Below, in pieces: positions 2,730-32,409 of a DNA stretch of 64,000 nt. The notes beneath the pieces are model-generated. The model was not told the DNA's origin. It saw only the letters and a program-made list of their open reading frames with translations, and ran no database searches. Positions within the stretch are counted from its first letter, which is position 1. The number at the start of each line of letters is the position of its first letter. This DNA is from a virus. Its lineage: Duplodnaviria > Caudoviricetes. A program made the position numbers and the translations under genes. The DNA lies in IMG/VR virus record IMGVR_UViG_3300015214_000033, positions 4,604 through 68,603 of that record; one strand, written 5' to 3'.

Positions 2730-3055
2730 ATGATAAAGAGTTTTAAAGATTGGTGCTTTTAGAGTGCAGGTCGAGTAAATCGATCTCAATTTTTATTAAC
2801 CAAAGAAGAGATTGAACAATGGTTGAAAGATAATACAGAAATTGGTAATTATGTTATTAATGATGACATGACAGTTGATGTTAAGTCAATTAAAAAGATT
2901 GAAGTTAAGTTAGTGGTTACTTTGATTGCGGTTCTTGTACATCATTGACGAGCGTTGAGCATAAAGTCAGTTGGTCAATTTTAGATGACTATATTTTAGA
3001 CAAAAACATTGGTGGTTCAAGACGATCAATGGCAAAATTAAAAAAAGGATTTTAG
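2730..3055 (+). pseudogene. Frameshifted, internally deleted LRR-type jumbo-phage protein
   Basis: Fragments in shifting frames: MIKSFKDW; KEEIEQWLKDNTEIGNYVINDDMTVDV; SGYFDCGSCTSLTSVE (repeat unit); C-terminus GGSRRSMAKLKKGF*. Confidence 0.6.
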
Positions 3056-3063
3056 ATATATAA
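3055..3063 (+). promoter_or_regulatory. GATATATAA putative late promoter
   Basis: Recurrent motif, 19 nt upstream of the ATG at 3083. Confidence 0.6.
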
Positions 3064-3082
3064 AAAAATTAAACATAAAATT

Positions 3083-3616
3083 ATGCCAAGCAAATCACAA
3101 TCGCAAAAAAAATTGATGTTATGGGCATTAGCATGTAAAAAGGGCGATGCTAAAAATTGTCCTAAACATGTTAAAGAATTAGCAGATTCAATGACAATTA
3201 AACAATTGGAAGATTATGTAAAAACAGATTCTGAAGATCTACCACAAAAAGTTAAAGAATCATTAGAGTTAAGTTTAGAACAAATGAATGAATCTGAATT
3301 AGAAGAATTGGATAAAATAGATGAATCTAATGGTTCATTTAGTGGTGCTACACGAGTAACAGTTTCAAATGTTGAAGGCATGGGTGATGTAACACCTCCA
3401 CCTCCAGGCGGAGTTGATAAAGGAAGTGTCGATGCATTTCCAAGTCTATTTACACCTAGTACATTTAAACTTCCAGGAAGTAAAAAGAGAAAAAATGAGA
3501 GACGTATCATGGATTTCGAACAATTTTTGAAACGTATAAATTATAGAACACATGATGATGATACTCAAACTGGATTAGGTAAAAATCCACCATCTAAAAA
3601 TAATCCATCTAAGTAA
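3083..3616 (+). CDS. DUF3008-like N-terminal domain protein
   Basis: MPSKSQSQKKLMLWALACKKG...ELADSMTIKQLEDYVKT resembles DUF3008. Confidence 0.55.
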   Translation: MPSKSQSQKKLMLWALACKKGDAKNCPKHVKELADSMTIKQLEDYVKTDSEDLPQKVKESLELSLEQMNESELEELDKIDESNGSFSGATRVTVSNVEGMGDVTPPPPGGVDKGSVDAFPSLFTPSTFKLPGSKKRKNERRIMDFEQFLKRINYRTHDDDTQTGLGKNPPSKNNPSK

Positions 3617-3631
3617 AATAACAATAAAAAT

Positions 3632-3814
3632 ATGAAAACATTTGACGATTTTTTAAATGAAGGTAGTGGAGATTTGAGTGATAAAGTATCTAAATTCATG
3701 AAAGATGTAATTGGAGAAAATGATGAAATTTTCAAAAAATTCATGAAAAAGAATGACATGAATCCTGCAGATCTTTCTGATTTTAAAGCATCAGTGCTTA
3801 AAAAACTTAAATAG
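3632..3814 (+). CDS. Small protein with a CTS-like leader
   Basis: MKTFDDFLNEG; 60 aa. Confidence 0.65.
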   Translation: MKTFDDFLNEGSGDLSDKVSKFMKDVIGENDEIFKKFMKKNDMNPADLSDFKASVLKKLK

Positions 3815-3828
3815 AAAATATTACATAG

Positions 3829-3855
3829 AGGGCTATTCATAATAGCCCTTTGTTG
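3829..3855 (+). terminator. Rho-independent terminator
   Basis: AGGGCTATT-CAT-AATAGCCCT stem followed by TTGTT. Confidence 0.75.
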
Positions 3856-3857
3856 TG

Positions 3858-3883
3858 TGAACTTTTGTGTATGTCATATATAA
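3858..3883 (+). promoter_or_regulatory. TGAAC-N16-TATAA putative promoter
   Basis: The same spacing recurs at 37108, 42952 and 50936. Confidence 0.5.
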
Positions 3884-3886
3884 TTT

Positions 3887-4493
3887 TTGTCTATGAATAA
3901 TTTTTGTGTATATTTTCATTATATTAAAAATGAATCCTGTCCATTTTATATTGGAATAGGGTCTTTAAAAAGACCTTATGATAAAAGACGATCTAAATTT
4001 TGGAATAATATAGTGAATAAATATGGTCAACCTATTATAAAAATAATACATGAAAACTTGTCATGGGATGATGCATGTAAATTAGAAATACAATATATTA
4101 AAAAATATGGACGTCGAGATATTGGTACAGGATGTTTAGTTAATATGACAGATGGTGGAGACGGAAGTACAGGTTATAAACATAACATTGATTTTATTAA
4201 TAAAATGAAACATATTAATAGAACTAATGATTGGAAAAATAATATAAAAAAATCATTGATTGGAAAATCACATTCTGCGGAACGTATTGAGAATAATAGA
4301 AATAGTCAAATTGGGTTACATAGTGGTTATAAAAATGCAAGAAGCGTTTTTTATACATTTCTTTCACCAGAAATGGGAAAATTTGAAGTATTTGGAAATT
4401 TAAAGAAGAACATAATCTCAGAAGTGGATTTTTAAAATTATGTAATGGTAAGATTGATGAGTATAAAGGATGGAAATTAATAGACAAATATAA
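3887..4493 (+). CDS. GIY-YIG-like homing endonuclease with a frameshifted C-terminus
   Basis: CVYFHY...FYIGIG...R and LVNMTDGGDG. After NLKK (~4405) another frame continues HNLRSGFLKLCNGKIDEYKGWKLIDK*, implying a small deletion. Confidence 0.7.
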
Positions 4494-4508
4494 ATAAATA
4501 AAGAAAGT

Positions 4509-4946
4509 ATGAATACACCAAAATTAAATTATCAGTTACTATCAGGTAATGCTAAAGATCCAATACGTGGTACAATAGGTTCTTCTGGGATAGATGTGTT
4601 TTCTCCGATAGATATAATAGTACCAAAACATGGTGATGTGTTAATTCCGTTAGATATACGATTCGAAATTCCATATGGATGGGATTTGTCTGTATATAAT
4701 AAATCGGGTATTTCAACCAAAAAAAAATTAATTAAAGGTGCAGAATTAATAGATTCTGATTATAGAGGAACTGTGCATATACATTTTTTCAATATGTCAG
4801 ACACTGATGTTGAAATAAATAAGGGCGATAAAATAGCACAATTAGTTATGCGTGAAGTTTGGATGGGAGAATTAAATAAAGTAGATAATATAGATATAAA
4901 TACTGAACGTGGTGCAGGAGGATTTGGATCAACAGGAACAAAATAA
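4509..4946 (+). CDS. dut: dUTPase
   Basis: SSGIDV, LIDSDYRG, GDKIAQLV and RGAGGFGSTG motifs. Confidence 0.95.
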   Translation: MNTPKLNYQLLSGNAKDPIRGTIGSSGIDVFSPIDIIVPKHGDVLIPLDIRFEIPYGWDLSVYNKSGISTKKKLIKGAELIDSDYRGTVHIHFFNMSDTDVEINKGDKIAQLVMREVWMGELNKVDNIDINTERGAGGFGSTGTK

Positions 4947-4953
4947 TAATAAT

Positions 4954-5472
4954 ATGATAAAAATATCAAAAAACCCAATACTTAATGACTCTAGAGGAAT
5001 GTTTTTTCCTCTAGACATTAAAGGTGAATGGACACAAAGCAATATTAGTGTTAGCCGTCTTTATGGAACATTTAGAGGTATGCATCACCAAACTGGTCAA
5101 ACTTCACAGAGCAAAAAAATCACAGTTATAACTGGAAAAATCATAGATTTTGTAGTATCTCTTAGAGAAGACTCATTCAGTGAAGCTCAATTTTTTGAAC
5201 TCCATCCTGGAGATACTATCGAAATTCCAAAAAATTATGCTCATGGATTTCTGACATTAGAAGATTATACTATGATTCAATATTTAGTAGATGCACCATA
5301 TTCTCCAACTACAGAAGTAAATATTCATTGGACATCAATACCTTTAATTAAAGAAGTTATAGATGCAGAGTGCCCACACGTAATATTATCAGATAAAGAT
5401 AGCAACGCAGTTTCATTGTCAAAAGAATTACACATGGAACGTACAGGTATACAATACACCTTAGACTTTTAA
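4954..5472 (+). CDS. rmlC: dTDP-4-dehydrorhamnose 3,5-epimerase (RmlC-like)
   Basis: DSRGMF, FRGMHHQ, QSKKITVITGKIIDFVV, IPKNYAHGFLTL and LSDKD. Confidence 0.85.
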   Translation: MIKISKNPILNDSRGMFFPLDIKGEWTQSNISVSRLYGTFRGMHHQTGQTSQSKKITVITGKIIDFVVSLREDSFSEAQFFELHPGDTIEIPKNYAHGFLTLEDYTMIQYLVDAPYSPTTEVNIHWTSIPLIKEVIDAECPHVILSDKDSNAVSLSKELHMERTGIQYTLDF

Positions 5473-5474
5473 TC

Positions 5475-5972
5475 ATGACTAGAAAACCTTATTTGTATCA
5501 AATGATGTCACGTATAGAAGATTGGTCAGAATATGCTGAACCAAAACATAAATATATGACTGTCAATAATTCATCATGTCATATGTCTATATTTCCAGAG
5601 TTTTATACAAATATAGAATCTATTAAACAACAACTTAAGATTGAGAAAGAAGATGCTATGACATATTCTATTACTTCAATTGTTTGGGATTTGTATAAAA
5701 AGAAAGCGTTGTATGTTTTTCATGAAATAGATAAACTTCCACGTACTACTTCAGAGGATATGGCACTCTATGAAAAAGAACAACAAGAGAAAGAAGAAAT
5801 AATTCGTAAACGTGAAGAAATAAAATTTCAAAATGAGAAATATGAACAACATATACGAGAGTGTAAAATGTTTATAGATCAAAAGGAAACGGAATATATT
5901 GAGTATGTTAAAGATTGTGCAGTTTTAGGTTATGATCCAAAACCGTTTTGGGAATTTGCCAGTTTTAATTGA
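5475..5972 (+). CDS. Hypothetical protein
   Basis: 165 aa ORF, in tandem with its neighbours. Confidence 0.6.
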   Translation: MTRKPYLYQMMSRIEDWSEYAEPKHKYMTVNNSSCHMSIFPEFYTNIESIKQQLKIEKEDAMTYSITSIVWDLYKKKALYVFHEIDKLPRTTSEDMALYEKEQQEKEEIIRKREEIKFQNEKYEQHIRECKMFIDQKETEYIEYVKDCAVLGYDPKPFWEFASFN

Positions 5973-23628: not shown

Positions 23629-24678
23629 ATGAGCTATAAATGGACTAAAGATTTTAAAAATAGAGATTATGTTGAATTTAAAAATTTTTTTAAAGAACAT
23701 AATAAATTATTTAACTTGAACATTAATAATGATGATAACCTAACGAATATTTCTAAAAAAATGTCTGATTTATTAATAAATGAACATTCATTTGGAATAA
23801 ATCAAATATTATCAACATTTAGATCTATTGCAAAAAATTTTAGTAATAAAACACGTAGTGATGTATGTATAGAATACTATAGATTTAGAGGTTATGATGA
23901 TGATTACGCATATAATCAAATTTCAGAAAGACAACGTCGCAAATCTAAATTAAGTATTGAATATTGGTTAAATAAAGGATATGATGAAATTTCTGCTAAA
24001 GAACAAGTAAGTATTTTACAATCTAAATTATCAAAAAAGAGAACACATAAGATTTTATCAGATGAAAACTATGCAAAAAGTATTTCTGCGTGGTCTATTA
24101 ATTACTGGATAAAAAAGGGTCTAAGTAAAGAAGATGCTGCGGAGAAAATAAAAGAGTATAATCCGTCATGTAGAAATTTTTATGATACTAGTATTGCATA
24201 CGAAAATGCTAAAAAAAGTATATCAAAACGAGTTAAAAAATTATGGGAAAATGGTGTATATGATGATAAAGTTAAAATGATTAACACTCGATATACATCA
24301 AAGCAGGAAAAATTATTTTTTAACTTGTTAATAAATGAAAAAGAAATCGATAATTTTATATATGAACCATTTGGAATAAATGTTAGATCTAATTCAGATG
24401 ATTTTTATTATGTATATGATGCATATATTAAAACCAATGATGGAATTATTTTAGTAGAATATGATGGAACATATTGGCATGATATTGATAAAGATTTTAA
24501 GCGAGATGATGTTGTGTTGAATATAAGAAAAGATATTATAGGAGTTATAAGAATAAATGACTTTTATTTTTATAAATATAATCAAACTTTAAAAATAATT
24601 ATAAATAGTATACAAGATGGAATTGAAAAAATTAAAAATAAAGAAACTAACAGAGTTATCTTATATGAAAGTGCATGA
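23629..24678 (+). CDS. Free-standing Vsr/PD-(D/E)XK-like homing endonuclease
   Basis: YWxxKGYxxxxA repeats; C-terminal YDAYI...VEYDGTYWHD. Confidence 0.75.
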   Translation: MSYKWTKDFKNRDYVEFKNFFKEHNKLFNLNINNDDNLTNISKKMSDLLINEHSFGINQILSTFRSIAKNFSNKTRSDVCIEYYRFRGYDDDYAYNQISERQRRKSKLSIEYWLNKGYDEISAKEQVSILQSKLSKKRTHKILSDENYAKSISAWSINYWIKKGLSKEDAAEKIKEYNPSCRNFYDTSIAYENAKKSISKRVKKLWENGVYDDKVKMINTRYTSKQEKLFFNLLINEKEIDNFIYEPFGINVRSNSDDFYYVYDAYIKTNDGIILVEYDGTYWHDIDKDFKRDDVVLNIRKDIIGVIRINDFYFYKYNQTLKIIINSIQDGIEKIKNKETNRVILYESA

Positions 24679-26917: not shown

Positions 26918-27427
26918 ATGAATAAACTATTTGATTTTGAAGACGAAGAAGAATTTGATGATGAAGAATTTACATCCAATGGAGGCACACGAGATAAAAT
27001 TTTTAACAATGATTTTAACATTGGAAATTTAGAATTTGAAAAATTTGAACATCTTCCACAAATTGACCAAACATATTCAGATAATTTACTAGGTGAATGT
27101 TATAATTCAATCGATTATGCGAGAAAACAAGCTTTAGAAGTGTTAATCGATGAATTTTTCAAAAAGACGGAATATACTGAATACTTAGAGTCAAAGAAAA
27201 AAATACCAAAACGAATTTTACCGTTAATATATGTTTCAATTGTTGAACAATTTAAAGGTGAAGAATTTACCCCATCTGAACGTTTTATTGCAATTGCTGA
27301 ATATTTTGGAATACGATATGAGATGTTATATGAAAACATTCCATCGTTGATGAGAGAAGCATTGGTCAGAGAATTGGATGAAACGTATGAGATATTGAAA
27401 CGTAAAGGTTTGAAAAAATTGTTTTAA
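26918..27427 (+). CDS. Hypothetical protein
   Basis: 169 aa ORF with an acidic N-terminus. Confidence 0.6.
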   Translation: MNKLFDFEDEEEFDDEEFTSNGGTRDKIFNNDFNIGNLEFEKFEHLPQIDQTYSDNLLGECYNSIDYARKQALEVLIDEFFKKTEYTEYLESKKKIPKRILPLIYVSIVEQFKGEEFTPSERFIAIAEYFGIRYEMLYENIPSLMREALVRELDETYEILKRKGLKKLF

Positions 27428-27428
27428 T

Positions 27429-28517
27429 ATGAAGAAAAATATCAATAGAATTTTTATGATTTCTGACACTCATTTGGGTGTCAGGAATAGTTCTGTAGAA
27501 TGGATGGACATCATTAGAGAATATTTCTATGATTTTTTAATTCCATTATTAAAAAAGGAAGCTAAACCAGGAGATGTGTTATTTCATTTGGGTGATCTTT
27601 TCGATTCACGACAATCATTGAATTTATTAGTCATGAATGAGGGGATGAAGATTTTTGAAGATATATCTAAAATACTTCCAGTGCATATTATATTGGGAAA
27701 TCATGACATCTATAAAAAATTCAGCAATGATATAAATTCAGTAAAAATACTAAACTGGATTCCAAATATTTTTGTTGTAGAAGAACCAATGATTATTGAA
27801 ACACAATCAAAAAAATTGTTTTTAATGCCATGGCGTGCAAATCATGAAGAAGAAACTGAATGTATTAAACAACATTCTGCAAATTACATGTTTTGTCATG
27901 CTGATGTTGCTGGATTAAAATTCAATAAGAAAGTTTCTGTTGAAGATGGAATTGATCTTGATGATATGAGTAAATTCGATAAAGTATTTTCAGGACATAT
28001 TCATTATGCTCAAAAACGAAAAAACTTTACTATGATTGGATGTCCATATCCACTTACTCGATCTGATATGAATAATACAAAAGGTGTTATATGTTTAGAT
28101 GTCAACTCGGGTGAAGAAGAATTTTTTGAGAATACCATGTCACCAAGATTCATAAGAGTAAATTTCGATAAATTGCTTAATATGGAAGAAGATGATGTGA
28201 AAAAAATGTTCAATAATAATTTTGTTGATGTACTGGTAGATCATAAATGGACACTCAACTTTCCATTCTCTACATTTTATGATGACGTAGTCGGATATCG
28301 TGTGTTAGAATTTATTCCAACAGTAAACGATGAAGATAATGAATATCTAATTGGAGGTGATGAAGAAATGGGTAAGATTGATATTGTAGAGCTATCTAAT
28401 AAGTTGATTCAGAACACTTCGCATAATGATAATATAAAAGATAAATTATTAAAAGTCGTAAAAATATTACATGCCAAAGTTAATAAACTTGATGGTGGCG
28501 ATAATGATGATGAATAA
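27429..28517 (+). CDS. SbcD/Mre11-like nuclease (gp47)
   Basis: SDTHLG, LGDLFD, GNHD, CHAD and SGHIH. Confidence 0.92.
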   Translation: MKKNINRIFMISDTHLGVRNSSVEWMDIIREYFYDFLIPLLKKEAKPGDVLFHLGDLFDSRQSLNLLVMNEGMKIFEDISKILPVHIILGNHDIYKKFSNDINSVKILNWIPNIFVVEEPMIIETQSKKLFLMPWRANHEEETECIKQHSANYMFCHADVAGLKFNKKVSVEDGIDLDDMSKFDKVFSGHIHYAQKRKNFTMIGCPYPLTRSDMNNTKGVICLDVNSGEEEFFENTMSPRFIRVNFDKLLNMEEDDVKKMFNNNFVDVLVDHKWTLNFPFSTFYDDVVGYRVLEFIPTVNDEDNEYLIGGDEEMGKIDIVELSNKLIQNTSHNDNIKDKLLKVVKILHAKVNKLDGGDNDDE

Positions 28518-28519
28518 CT

Positions 28520-28762
28520 ATGAAGATATTAAATGTAGAATATAGAAATTTTGGGTCATATGGAAATAGAACTGTTAAGCTAAAACTTCCAGATGACCCT
28601 GGATTTTGGCTTATACAAGGGAAAAACGGTCACGGCAAATGCGTTATGCCAGACACTAAAATTAAAATTAGTGTCAATAAGACAGAGTTAGAAAAAATTA
28701 ATACTTTTTTGAAAATATATAGATCAAAAAAGGGATTAAATGGCAATGGAAAACTGGAGTAG
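28520..28762 (+). CDS. SbcC/gp46 fragment 1: 40 aa N-extein plus short split IntN (28640-28759)
   Basis: YRNFGSYG...IQGKNGHGK|CVMPDTKIKI...*. Confidence 0.85.
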   Translation: MKILNVEYRNFGSYGNRTVKLKLPDDPGFWLIQGKNGHGKCVMPDTKIKISVNKTELEKINTFLKIYRSKKGLNGNGKLE

Positions 28763-29770
28763 AATATGTCCGGAATGTGGAGATACTATCATATATAAGA
28801 ATAAATATAAAATGAATTCTGATAGTAAAAAAGGCATTCTTTGTAAATTATGTAGAAAAAAATATAGAAAAAAAACATATTCATGTTTTAATAAACTTCA
28901 TTGGATAGATAAAGGGTATTCTGAAAAAGATGCTATAAAAAAGGTATTTGAAATACAATCTAAAATTTCAAAAAAACGAAAACCAGAAACACGTACTGGC
29001 AAAAATTCACCCTTTAAAAAGGAAACATGGATTGCAAAGGGATATTCTGAAGAAGAAGCAATAAAAAAATCAAGAAGCTTTAATAAACTTAATAAAGAGT
29101 ATTGGATTGCAAAGGGATATTCTGAAGAAGAAGCAATAAAAAATATTTCATTATTTCAACAATCGTTGGCTAAAAGGAAAAAAAAGAATGACGATATTCT
29201 ACCAAATCAATATAAATATTGGATAAAGAAAGGATATTCTGAAGAAGAAGCAAAAGCAAAAGTCTGTGAACGTCAATCTACATTTACATTAGAAAAATGT
29301 AAACAAAAATATGGTATAGAAAAAGGAACAATAATTTTTAATGAAAGACAACGTAAATGGAAACAGAAAATTTTCAATAAATACGGTTCAATTGCTAAAT
29401 CTACATCTAGTTATAATATTATGATTGCTGAAACATTGATGATAGAATATCCTAATATTTTATTTGGAAAAGATGAAAAATTCATATATGATAATGTTAA
29501 TGAAAGAGTATATAAATATGATATATGTGATCCTATTTCTAAAAAATAATAGAAATAAATGGAGATTTTTGGCACATGAATCCATATAAATATTCATGTA
29601 CAGATATAAATCCAGTAACAAAAAATATGGCTATCGATATATGGAATTTTGATAAAATTAAAATTCAATGTGCAATAGATCATAATTATACCGTATTAGT
29701 TATATGGGAATCTGATATAGTTAATAATAAAGATAAAATATTAGAAAAATGCAAGAATTTTTTGAAATAG
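28740..29770 (+). CDS. Free-standing Vsr-like homing endonuclease (frameshift at A6 29541-29546)
   Basis: CPECG zinc motif, four WIxKGYSEEEA repeats, and across the shift KIIEINGDFWHMNP...LVIWESD. Confidence 0.75.
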
Positions 29771-31686
29771 AATGTACACTTGAAGAGTTATATGAATATA
29801 ATAAACATGCTAATTCTATATATGATAATAAAATATATGTTAGTACAAAATTTGGAAAAAAATGTATAGAAAATATTGCATATACTGCATATAATGAACC
29901 TACTTTATCAATAAGAACAGAAACAGAAAAAAATATAAAAGTTTCTAATAATCATATTTTATATGATGTTAATGGTATTGAAATTAAATCAAAAGATTTA
30001 GAAATTGGAAATTATATAGAAACTACAGATGGATATGAATTAATAACATATATAGAATCGATTGGTAATTACGATTTAATGGATATACAAGTAGACGATG
30101 TTCATGAATATTACGCTAATGGTATTCGTTCACACAACTCAACAATATCTGATGTTATTAAATTTGCTATTTATGGAAGATTGGAGAAAAAGAAACTTCG
30201 CGATCTTGCAAACCGTTTAAATAAAAATGCATATGTTCATATAGATATGATTACCAAAAAAGGTAAACTTACTATTGAACGAGGTATAGAACCAAGCATA
30301 TTTGATGTTTGGATAAACGATGTAAAATTCGATAAAGCCGGAAAGAAATCTGTTCAAGATTATTTAGAAGAAGAAATTTTAGAGATGCCATTTTATGTAT
30401 TTTCTAATACACTTTCACTTTCAATAAATGATTTTAAGAGTTTTTTGACCATGAATAATCACGATAAGAAAACTATCATTGATAAAATATTTGGCTTACA
30501 AATGTTAAATCAAATGAGAGAACTTATCAAAGGTCAGATCAAAAAGCTTAAAAGTAATATGGATGCTATTGATTCTAGCATCTCTGCATTTGAACATAGT
30601 TTAACTACATCAACCACCGAATTAGAAACACTAGAAGAACAAATTAAACAGGATAAATCTGATAAAATAGTAAAGTTAAATGAACAAAAACTAATTTATG
30701 AAGATGGTTTAAGAAAGTGTTTATCCAATTTAGAAAAAATAGAAGCAAAATATACAGAGATTAGAAAATCAAAAGTATCTGTACAAAATTCTATTTCAGA
30801 TGATAGAAGAAATAAAGCTATTGCACAAGAGAAAATCGATCTATATAAAAACTCAAAATGTCCTGTTTGTGAATCTGATCTTGATACAGATTTTCATACA
30901 ACTATTTTAAAAGAGTATCAAAATGCGTCTATAGAACTTGATGAATCTATGGCTGCTAAAACAGAAACTCTAAATAAGTTAAATGAAAATCTTAAGAAAT
31001 TAGAAAGTCTTAAAACTGATACAGAACGAAATAGAGGCTCTATTAGATCTAAATTAAATTTAACTCAAAGAGAAATTGACGAGTCTAGTGAAACAATAGA
31101 TGACAAACAATTAGGCTCATTGCGTAAGATAATTAAAGATGCTAAAACAAACATCGATACAAATAAGAAAGCACATGTAAATACTCAAAAAGAAGTATCT
31201 TTCTATGGAATCTTGGATGAAATACTTGGAGATAAAGGAGTAAAACAACTCGCAATTAAAACAATTGTTCCACCATTAAATGTGGAAATTGGACGAATTG
31301 TAAAACATCTTGGTGTAGATCATAAAATTATTTTTAATGAAGAGTTTGATGCAAAAATAACTCACTTTGGAATTGAAGTTAGTCCAGAAACACTTAGTAC
31401 AGGTGAAATGAAAAAGGTCGATTTTGCAGTTTTACTTGCTGTTATAAAAATGATGAAGATAAAATATCCATATTTGAATTTGTTATTTTTAGATGAAATA
31501 TTTTCAAGTATTGATGGTGATGGACAGTATTATATTCTAAAGATATTAAGAGAAAGTGTTAAAGATTATGGACTGAATATATTCGTTATCAGCCACTATC
31601 CGTTATCATATTCCGAGTTTGATTATAAAATAGAAGTAACAAAAGCGAATGGCTTTTCGCAAATGGAAATAAAAACCGTAGAATAA
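29749..31686 (+). CDS. SbcC/gp46 fragment 2: long IntC (130 aa, to 30138) plus C-extein
   Basis: VSNNHIL (block B), LMDIQV...YYANGIRSHN|STISD; CPVC zinc hook, LSTGE signature and LFLDE. Confidence 0.9.
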   Translation: MQEFFEIECTLEELYEYNKHANSIYDNKIYVSTKFGKKCIENIAYTAYNEPTLSIRTETEKNIKVSNNHILYDVNGIEIKSKDLEIGNYIETTDGYELITYIESIGNYDLMDIQVDDVHEYYANGIRSHNSTISDVIKFAIYGRLEKKKLRDLANRLNKNAYVHIDMITKKGKLTIERGIEPSIFDVWINDVKFDKAGKKSVQDYLEEEILEMPFYVFSNTLSLSINDFKSFLTMNNHDKKTIIDKIFGLQMLNQMRELIKGQIKKLKSNMDAIDSSISAFEHSLTTSTTELETLEEQIKQDKSDKIVKLNEQKLIYEDGLRKCLSNLEKIEAKYTEIRKSKVSVQNSISDDRRNKAIAQEKIDLYKNSKCPVCESDLDTDFHTTILKEYQNASIELDESMAAKTETLNKLNENLKKLESLKTDTERNRGSIRSKLNLTQREIDESSETIDDKQLGSLRKIIKDAKTNIDTNKKAHVNTQKEVSFYGILDEILGDKGVKQLAIKTIVPPLNVEIGRIVKHLGVDHKIIFNEEFDAKITHFGIEVSPETLSTGEMKKVDFAVLLAVIKMMKIKYPYLNLLFLDEIFSSIDGDGQYYILKILRESVKDYGLNIFVISHYPLSYSEFDYKIEVTKANGFSQMEIKTVE

Positions 31687-31808
31687 TGGCAAATATTGAA
31701 AAATAGTATATTGAACAATGAAGAGTTAATAGATAAGAGAATAAAAATTTAATCGCGGATTTAGAGATTAGACAAATTAAATCAAAAGTAATAGATAGAT
31801 CAACACTA

Positions 31809-32210
31809 ATGCAGTTTACAATAGAAGACATAAAAGACAAAGATCGATTAGAACAAATGATTAAAAAGGAAGCTCTTTCTATTTTTAATTCAAAAAAAGC
31901 TAATGAAGCAAGAAGTTTAGACGATATTGAGTTTACTGTGCGTCAAGGTAAAATTGCTGAATTGTATTTGATAGAAAATTGTGGGTACAAAGAAGCAGAT
32001 AAAAGATGGCATGATTTGATAGATTCTCGAGGAAACTATATTGAAGTAAAAGCATACACTTTTAACGGAAGAGTTTTGGCTAAAAACACTCCTTTTGTGC
32101 AAAGAGATTTACATCGGTTAAGGAACGCAACTTGGAATGATTCTAAATGGTATATTTTGTTTAGATATGAAGATGGAATATATACATTGTTAGAAAAAAT
32201 CCAAATTTAA
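31809..32210 (+). CDS. Hypothetical protein, possibly PD-(D/E)XK-like
   Basis: GKIAELYL...HDLID...IEVKA. Confidence 0.45.
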   Translation: MQFTIEDIKDKDRLEQMIKKEALSIFNSKKANEARSLDDIEFTVRQGKIAELYLIENCGYKEADKRWHDLIDSRGNYIEVKAYTFNGRVLAKNTPFVQRDLHRLRNATWNDSKWYILFRYEDGIYTLLEKIQI

Positions 32211-32213
32211 TAG

Positions 32214-32390
32214 ATGAAGAAGAAACAGAGTGCAGAAGAACTTCGTGAAAGACAGCGAAAATATTACGAAAAGAATAGAGAAAAGTGGAACAAATACCAA
32301 AGGGAGTATAAAAAGAAAAGGTATGAAGAAGATTTAGAATATCGAGAAAAGACAAAGACATACCAGAAAAATTATATGAAAAACATATAA
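32214..32390 (+). CDS. Small basic helical protein (58 aa)
   Basis: Read manually: MKKKQSAEELRERQRKYYEKNREKWNKYQREY...*. Confidence 0.45.
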   Translation: MKKKQSAEELRERQRKYYEKNREKWNKYQREYKKKRYEEDLEYREKTKTYQKNYMKNI

Positions 32391-32409
32391 TAAAAAAGCA
32401 ACAACACAG

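Follow-up and report, generated by a model that had tools for sequence, protein, structure and literature searches.

How could a phage make a gp46 ATPase from a gene that is broken in the middle of its Walker A loop? The question is raised by a locus on a 64,000-nucleotide (nt) stretch of phage DNA (the window; positions 4,604 to 68,603 of the 68.6-kb IMG/VR virus record IMGVR_UViG_3300015214_000033, with a CheckV completeness of 22%), where a gp46/Rad50/SbcC gene is spread over two open reading frames (ORFs), its break coinciding with an intein. The data presented here suggest that gp46 is very probably made as two polypeptides that are joined by trans-splicing of a split intein, with the association of the halves, the splicing and the need for splicing all predicted from the sequence. 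The first polypeptide would consist of 40 extein residues ending in GKNGHGK, fused to a short N-terminal intein half (IntN), and the second of a 130-residue C-terminal intein half (IntC) fused to the remaining 515 gp46 residues from Ser+1. IntN would contribute Cys1 and strands beta1-beta2, and IntC helix alpha1, the Ser and His of block B, block F and the C-terminal His-Asn. The two would associate into a class 1 HINT domain, and protein trans-splicing would join GK to ST and restore the Walker A loop. Both gp46 halves lie on the same strand of one contig, and the IntC ORF has its own start:

28520-28762, plus strand: ORF of 80 amino acids (aa) in the ORF list, N-extein and IntN
28520-28639, plus strand: N-extein, the first 40 gp46 residues, ending in GKNGHGK of Walker A (phrog_77, SbcC-like, E 5.2e-5)
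28640-28762, plus strand: IntN, from the ORF reading, with Cys1, block A (CVMPDTKIKISVN), an amphipathic tail (...ELEKINTFLKIYRSK) whose motif is shared by relatives, 8 more residues (GLNGNGKLE region) and the stop
29749-31686, plus strand: ORF of 645 aa in the ORF list, IntC and C-extein
29749-30138, plus strand: IntC, 130 aa, from alignments and profile searches
30139-31686, plus strand: C-extein, Ser+1 and the remaining gp46 (NCBIfam Rad50, E 5.7e-16)

The gp46 gene and the site of the break

The gene is identified as gp46 by its Walker A motif, zinc hook, signature motif, Walker B motif and H-loop, together with an adjoining Mre11/SbcD-type gene. The N-extein gives AAA_23 and SMC_N matches below their cut-offs and aligns with the N-termini of intact homologues. 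The C-extein carries ATPase lobe I, a coiled coil with a CPVC zinc hook, the signature motif, Walker B and the H-loop, and in Pfam it matches SbcC_Walker_B and Rad50_zn_hook weakly. Across 20 aligned homologues C371, P372 and C374 (zinc hook), S550 and G552 (signature) and D582 and E583 (Walker B) were invariant, and H616 (H-loop) was nearly so.

The first ORF reads MKILNVEYRNFGSYGNRTVKLKLPDDPGFWLIQGKNGHGK then CVMPDTKIKISVNKTELEKINTFLKIYRSKKGLNGNGKLE, with the boundary at ...WLIQGKNGHGK-CVMPDTKIKISVNKTELEKINTFLKIYRSKKGLNGNGKLE and the stop 40 aa from Cys1 (the hyphen marks the junction here and in the sequences below). In the second ORF, the 130-aa segment that ends in ...EYYANGIRSHN is followed by STISDVIKFAIYG / STISDVIKFAIYGRLEKKK. 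The NCBIfam Rad50 match (NF002244, E 5.7e-16) begins at residue 130 of this ORF and at profile position 36, and when gp46 was compared by tblastn with the phage collection (2459 phage records), the phage gp46 genes H2 and H3 matched the ORF from residue 131 onward. Homologues without the insert are collinear over the intein site, namely L001, L002, the database fragment P0156 and 75 of the 80 nearest gp46 loci described below. The intact homologue L001 (LR756500.1) reads ...LLTGVNGAGK-STVANVIKFLLYGKVDG, that is GVNGAGK-STVANVIKF, and P0156, which is uninterrupted and 58% identical to the ORF at 28520-28762, reads ...GKNGHGK-STLSDVIKFAVYG / STLSDVIKFAVYGKLENKKLKD. The junction GK-S is exact because the uninterrupted relatives read GK-ST over the same site. 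Judged from these alignments, the gp46 gene is cut within the Walker A loop, between the Lys and the Ser/Thr. This agrees with the original prediction, which had given the ORF coordinates and the residues of both halves correctly and had placed the cut of an SbcC/gp46 gene inside Walker A. The spliced product it foresaw, GKNGHGK-ST, would match the sequence of the intact homologues.

The intein halves and the case for trans-splicing

The sequences on both sides of the break carry the residues of an intein. The Cys at position 1 stands directly after GKNGHGK and is kept in the IntN ORFs of relatives; it was found in four fully visible split relatives, in the contiguous relative L007 and in five database N-fragments. 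IntC contains helix alpha1 (CTLEELYEY), block B (VSNNH, S66 to H69), block F (YDLMDIQV, with D109, L110 and D112 present) and block G (ANGIRSHN). All of 20 split homologues have H69, S128, H129, N130 and S131, and nearly all have S66; in a further alignment (A5) both S66 and H69 were invariant. A profile built from eight IntC sequences matched 39 PDB sequences at E <= 1, nearly all of them inteins, among them gp41-1 (4.9e-13), CatC (1.2e-10), NrdJ-1 (2.3e-7) and VidaL (3.6e-7), and a profile of five contiguous relatives matched NrdJ-1 (1.4e-10), gp41-1 (6.6e-10) and VidaL (1.5e-9). With the window IntC alone, VidaL was the best solved relative (E 0.0071). By these residues and profile matches the IntN/IntC pair is a class 1 intein (HINT domain) that is predicted to splice. 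The alignment of 20 homologues and the PDB matches also bear out the proposed division into a short IntN (40 aa; 31-32 in close relatives) and a 130-aa IntC with blocks B, F and G.

The length of IntN in the window needs a qualification, which comes from a run of A near its end and from a variant found in a wastewater contig (X8):

28726-28731, plus strand: A6 run near the IntN end, one A shorter (at 28726) in X8

With one A fewer in this run, IntN ends in ...YRSKRD (32 aa) and the stop falls directly before the endonuclease ATG. The database fragment P0151 (72 aa, 90% identical) ends in ...FLKIYRSKRD, the same ending as in the X8 variant. The database N-fragments are 71-72 aa long, with P0152-P0155 ending in ...YRSKL or ...YRSKE, and IntN measures 26-33 aa in the 35 IMG/VR loci with a script-found N-fragment, bar one 56-aa form with Ser1. 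Because X8 with one A fewer gives the ending of P0151, the GLNGNGKLE tail is read as the product of a +1 A frameshift that extends IntN into the 5' end of the nuclease gene, and the IntN core in the window is by this comparison about 31 residues long. The 56-aa form belongs to locus L145 (1630-1920), where Ser replaces Cys1 (GNGK-SLIPST...), as it does in P0130 (GNGK-SLINST...); these variants may be cysteine-independent relatives.

The break appears to lie at a different place in the fold than in the TerL inteins. Natural atypical breaks have been described after beta2 (S1: VidaL, PolB16) or after alpha1 (S2: AceL and GOS TerL) (PMC13014065). The head helix of IntC (CTLEELYEY; consensus TLxDLYDF) aligns with alpha1 of NrdJ-1 (TTIKEVVEIF) and of VidaL (TVQELRELY), whereas for CatC, which is the IntC of the consensus TerL intein, the alignment starts no earlier than profile position 19, past this helix. 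In the shortest contiguous relatives (L114, 142 aa; P0042) a single helix occupies this place, and it aligns with the IntC helix. By alignment, the break is therefore placed in the beta2-alpha1 loop, S1-like as in VidaL and unlike the TerL inteins. IntN also ends in a conserved amphipathic tail (...FLEFLKNK, ...FLKIYRSK; general form ...F-L-x-F/I-L-K-N-K), which is only vestigial in minimal contiguous relatives. It is conceivable, if rather unlikely, that the gp46 inteins represent a third natural split topology, in which the beta2-alpha1 break is combined with the tail as a docking element by which a very small beta1-beta2 fragment would more easily meet its large partner. If this were true, the at least 52 clusters (50% identity) would amount to an extensive natural collection of short-IntN split inteins with a built-in affinity handle, and the contiguous forms of 167 residues, L007 among them, would have arisen by re-fusion once the nuclease gene was lost. 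The idea that the tail is a diverged copy of alpha1, suggested when MAFFT co-aligned both in alignment A4, was dropped since no statistical test stood behind it.

Several observations weigh against the proposal of a trans-spliced gp46. The Pfam Intein_splicing profile scored IntC below its cut-off (E 2.8e-4, 21.1 bits vs 35.8), as did TIGR01443 (E 0.029, 14.6 vs 15.6). The 8-residue frameshift tail of the window IntN is absent from relatives, and no strong Shine-Dalgarno sequence was seen by eye (unscored) before the IntC start. Both the fold of the paired halves and the part played by the IntN tail are read from sequence alignment only. No RNA runs are listed among the public runs that contain the stretch, and contigs, which were used for the comparison of samples below, drop rare variants, so a minority continuous allele could escape it.

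It could be argued that gp46 is simply dead, that is, that the nuclease insertion broke the gene, that the pieces are relics and that the phage uses host SbcCD or does without. The frameshift in the intervening endonuclease gene, the frameshift tail of IntN and the lack of listed RNA runs would all fit a dead gene. However, open frames and every catalytic and ATPase motif are kept at 40-60% identity over dozens of lineages, and the IntC ORFs of relatives start at the same alignment position, mostly with Met. Moreover, the variant P0160, which shares an X8-like contig of 18,321 bases with P0151 and whose C-extein differs from that of the window at 76 of 515 residues (15%; 439 of 515 identical), has no stop and keeps the motifs. 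A dead gene is thus considered very unlikely. It is just as hard to believe that the halves associate via their intein parts and act as a non-covalent complex without splicing. This has a precedent in the reported non-covalent rescue of a fragmented phage ribonucleotide reductase (PMC3045599), but in gp46 C1, S66, H69, H129, N130 and S+1 are all kept, and a module used for association only would not need them. In addition, judging from the ABC-ATPase fold, an unspliced domain of 170 residues would occupy the nucleotide site in the P-loop. The earlier claim that ATP binding would depend on trans-splicing is a sound inference.

The layout was also compared with independent samples. Nineteen public runs are listed as containing part of the stretch, eight of them with half of its words or more, and Logan contigs (not raw reads) of four runs were used: X3 (landfill), X4 (groundwater), X8 (wastewater) and X7. 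X3, X4 and X8 come from three studies, and X3 and X4 from studies other than the likely source. X3 and X4 covered all 30 bins and were near-identical to the window, with two shared substitutions and, in X4, one further 1-nt deletion at 28827. Both junctions (28735-28765 and 29745-29775), which the original prediction had singled out for checking, were unchanged in these two. X8, whose two long pieces hold 63 and 33 substitutions, is a diverged variant that keeps the layout and both junctions. X7 covered 19 of the 30 bins; its one joint (skips 843, side 22) seems to come from another organism or from a repeat and was set aside. No continuous ORF was found in the contigs of the compared runs. 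An assembly or sequencing artefact, hiding a continuous gene with a contiguous mini-intein or with no intein, could draw on the A-runs with indels between samples (28726, 28827, 28855, 29540) and on an internal repeat that breaks contigs at 29057-29114. This is extremely improbable, as the same junction sequences occur in three independently assembled runs of different studies, the halves are separated by about 1 kb in which the nuclease gene runs in other frames (from the IntN stop, TAG at 28760-28762, to the IntC start, ATG at 29749), and the layout recurs in unrelated IMG/VR contigs and database proteins. Repair at the RNA level, with the nuclease gene in a self-splicing intron and a contiguous intein translated, has in its favour that group I introns, too, can harbour Vsr-like endonucleases (PMC2677866, PMC3239194), but it is scarcely credible, as neither a group I intron nor any other Rfam family turned up in 27500-31000 at E <= 1, the IntN stop and the IntC ATG are at conserved places in relatives, and the overlapping ORFs leave no non-coding room for a self-splicing intron core.

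The X8 variant bears on the history of the element as well. Among the differences listed, X8 departs from the window DNA at 38 or more positions in 28334-28555 (about 15%), upstream of the cassette, whereas differences are sparse over the cassette itself, with at most 25 in 28556-29047 and 33 in 29103-30300 (about 3-5%). The drop may point to a border of recombination some 85 nt ahead of the intein site, and perhaps to the complete intein-nuclease cassette having passed recently from one phage lineage to another. P0160 seems to offer a similar contrast, as its IntC is identical to that of the window at 127 of 130 residues. This was rejected as a homing signature and is not counted as a recent transfer, since the coiled coil (259-484) varies in any case and accounts for 58 of the 76 differences in the extein.

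The endonuclease gene and the forms of the locus

The original prediction had an endonuclease gene intervene between the halves just after block A, away from the canonical endonuclease site, and the sequence there was found to be as follows:

28740-29549, plus strand: endonuclease 5' part, ORF of 269 aa in the ORF list (269 codons, frame 0), with a Cys-rich N-terminus and four W-x-x-KGYSEEEA repeats, collinear with L047 and L041
29541-29546, plus strand: A6 run at the endonuclease frame break, from contig comparison and alignment
29543-29770, plus strand: endonuclease 3' part, 75 codons, frame 2 (phrog_22677, E 4e-13, positions 274-341 of 353)
29576-29770, plus strand: the same 3' part as it stands in the ORF list, 64 aa

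By alignment, the listed ORF from 29576 continues the ORF at 28740-29549 in another frame, and the two make up a single endonuclease gene. The 269-aa and 75-aa pieces are collinear with the intact ORFs of L047 (374 aa) and L041 (338 aa), and in this alignment they meet at ...YDICDPISKK-IIEINGDFWH. Frame 2 is open from 29543 and reads KIIEINGDFWHMNPYKYS...YTVLVIWESD (KIIEINGDFWH...). A seventh A at 29541-29546, or a -1 slip, gives ...DPISKKIIEINGDFWH..., and low-level -1 slippage may occur on this run. The X8 contig does have an extra A behind 29540 (A7), by which one frame is restored. X3 and X4 lack this A, which is why the window lineage is taken to have a frameshifted gene, and the gene in the window genome is probably decaying after the loss of one A of an A7 run. 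A-runs that differ by one base between samples were seen at several positions (X8, +A at 29540 and -1 at 28726; X4, -1 at 28827; X7, +A at 28855). This pattern seems to reflect either decay of the nuclease gene by homopolymer indels in several populations or errors in low-depth contigs.

The 3' part shows, by eye, the motifs IIEINGDFWH ... D..K ... YTVLVIWESD. The 5' part had no Pfam or PHROG match, and NCBIfam gave nothing useful for the endonuclease pieces. Neither the 3' piece (phmmer) nor a profile of six endonuclease sequences matched 3R3P (the I-Bth0305I domain) or Vsr in PDB, and a Pfam search with the window pieces and four relatives returned only DUF559 for the L025 counterpart, a weak match (E 0.0032). 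As leads only, DUF559, NUMOD3 and Vsr are found on ESM Atlas neighbours of the L047 protein, whose C-terminal part is matched by one DUF559 Atlas cluster at a listed TM of 0.80. Because HMMER gave no link to the I-Bth0305I domain or Vsr, the label Vsr-like is limited to architecture and motifs, and the enzyme is not a proven EDxHD member.

Some other features of the nuclease were recorded. At 29028-29132 the gene contains a near-perfect internal repeat (tggattgcaaagggatattctgaagaagaagcaataaaaaa, twice), which interrupts the assemblies of all four runs at 29057-29114, where only short contigs bridge. Elsewhere in the window, the ORF at 23887-24162 has similar W-x-x-KGY/L-S/D-E-E repeats (tblastn E 6e-8). 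The nuclease ORF of L043 (2971-4029) shares the N-terminal repeats and has a different C-terminal part (...FLYLIKIRLGG..YYKIGITGKS...), so that a catalytic domain may have been swapped on one DNA-binding module; a resemblance of this part to GIY-YIG/T5orf172 was seen by eye only and was not kept, since Pfam found nothing. In L025 (3664-4044; the same as L098 and L102) there is only a 126-aa ORF with IIEFQGSKFH...LLYVWDTD motifs and without the repeat region. Finally, AATATATAG lies at 28714-28722, within the IntN coding sequence and 18 nt 5' of the nuclease ATG. The motif GATATATA is a late-promoter-like candidate, and this copy is the sole [AG]ATATATA match in 28001-30200.

An exhaustive HMMER search with the 130-aa IntC found 219 cluster representatives at E <= 1e-3 (26 at E <= 1e-10), and the best 150 of them were classified with profiles from the 20-homologue alignment. 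The protein starts with IntC and continues as gp46 in 52 of these 150, while the intein is internal in gp46, and thus contiguous, in 20. Another 45 start with IntC and have another or a too-short extein (many terminase-like), 31 have the intein internal in other proteins, and 2 gave no profile match. A scan of gp46 loci in IMG/VR, in which the nearest 80 of 544 were examined, found the intein in five: L007 has a contiguous intein (721 aa), in L047, L043 and L041 the halves flank an intact nuclease gene, and L025 has the nuclease-only ORF of 126 aa. The other 75 loci, 3 of them cut by contig ends, had no IntC-like sequence; a weak IntC-like match elsewhere in L034 (E 0.03) was disregarded.

A second scan of IMG/VR used the IntC profile, and 80 of its 103 loci were sorted by script. 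Six were contiguous gp46 genes and 15 had other exteins. The N-fragment was found in 34 split loci, of which 23 have a nuclease-like ORF and 11 do not; it was not found in 13 split loci with a nuclease-like ORF, and in 12 neither was found (some at contig ends). A nuclease-like ORF stands just upstream of IntC in at least 36 IMG/VR loci. These counts are of loci and not of lineages: the same phage occurs more than once (for example L085/L086, L093/L094, L103-105 and L107-109), and L085, L092, L098 and L130 repeat L047, L007, L025 and L041. L146-L149 were counted as split because the Walker A pattern was unmatched and may be contiguous; they have about 200 in-frame residues before the IntC-like part (2865-5705) without a match to that pattern. 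In a few loci the intein lies at a Walker A motif about 400 residues into a long ORF (L103-L105, L126 and L154, split; L125 and L136, contiguous). The N-exteins of these loci are about ten times longer than in the window, and they are perhaps SbcD-SbcC fusions.

The relatives thus include empty sites, contiguous mini-inteins, fractured genes with an intact nuclease gene and fractured genes without a nuclease. Together with the decaying-nuclease form of the window, these forms would fit the steps of a cycle that a selfish element goes through at a single site. In the origin proposed for the window, a free-standing Vsr-like homing-endonuclease gene would have settled in the beta2-alpha1 loop of a mini-intein and so fractured gp46. 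The endonuclease gene would later have lost one A of its A7 run and now be decaying, while the split intein would be kept under selection because the phage needs gp46. The broken nuclease gene with its intact variant, the IntN frameshift tail, the S1-like break and the census of forms all go beyond the original prediction.

The surroundings of the locus are those of an AT-rich phage genome (G+C 26-33% in the window). A megablast search with 27400-32400 gave no near-identical record in the phage collection, and the closest gp46 relatives there are uncultured phages of 462-636 kb. Directly 5' of gp46 lies the gene of its phosphoesterase partner, which also precedes gp46 in L001, L007, L025 and L047:

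27429-28517, plus strand: gp47/SbcD/Mre11-like nuclease gene (Pfam Metallophos, E 1.1e-10, above cut-off)

Comparison with known split inteins

The closest parallels come from Dassa, London, Stoddard, Schueler-Furman and Pietrokovski (PMC2677866), who in 2009 described fractured genes that contain split inteins, along with a new family of Vsr-like endonucleases. As in the window, a phage DNA-metabolism gene is carried there by two same-strand ORFs with a split intein at the break, and the halves are separated by a free-standing gene for a Vsr-like endonuclease whose frames overlap with theirs. The nearest of those cases, a terminase locus, likewise has an unusual break and a 122-residue IntC with all N-terminal motifs but N1. 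The window differs from these cases in its host gene, gp46, and in its frameshifted endonuclease gene; the terms gp46, SbcC and Rad50 are absent from the main text of that paper. The I-Bth0305I/EDxHD family (PMC3239194), members of which occur in fractured genes, combines an N-terminal repeat DNA-binding module with a C-terminal Vsr-like domain, an architecture that the window nuclease appears to share. Unlike I-Bth0305I, the window nuclease has no HMMER match to 3R3P or Vsr, and its kinship lies in motifs, in the weak DUF559 match of a relative and in Atlas neighbours.

Among individual inteins, VidaL (PDB 6vgv/6vgw; cited in PMC13014065) resembles the gp46 intein in its dependence on Cys and, judged by alignment, in having alpha1 in IntC and a beta2-alpha1 (S1) break. 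Its IntN has 16 aa, compared to 26-33 aa in the gp46 relatives and 40 aa in the window, and the gp46 IntN is longer because the conserved amphipathic tail follows beta2. VidaL also has a different host gene and was compared by its intein sequence, outside its host and locus. The TerL inteins resemble the window in being hosted by a phage P-loop ATPase, with an IntN of 25-37 aa and an IntC of 104-115 aa (AceL-TerL, 25 and 104 aa; GOS-TerL, 37 and 115 aa; Cat, 30 and 104 aa; PMC11766414), and the C-terminal motif of CatC (..YYTNGIVSH) is similar to that of the window (..YYANGIRSH). However, the TerL inteins are split after alpha1 (S2; PMC13014065) whereas the gp46 intein is S1-like, and the +1 residue is Cys in the former and Ser in the latter. 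PolB16 OarG has a natural S1 split, its IntN being short (15 aa) and its IntC long (168 aa), but its host is a PolB gene and it lacks cysteine, with Ser1 and Ser+1 instead; it is likened to the window by description only (PMC10189870).

The original prediction had called such inteins rare, and this holds for the literature (PMC13014065, PMC11766414) but not for sequence databases, where the family is common. No publication was found on an intein in SbcC, Rad50, gp46 or a P-loop host, and Rad50 and SbcC are absent from the main text of two intein surveys (PMC4760082, PMC5050341), although supplementary tables may list such inteins in either case. Since a short first half can be synthesised chemically, naturally split inteins that have one are wanted for labelling proteins and for their semisynthesis, and PMC13014065 names AceL-TerL, GOS-TerL, VidaL and PolB16 as natural examples and says that more candidates are lacking. 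The window element is a natural, atypically split intein of the known fractured-gene kind in a host gene that is apparently undescribed for such elements. It is part of a large, diverse and apparently undescribed set in a new host protein, with Cys1, Ser+1 and an IntN core of about 30 residues.

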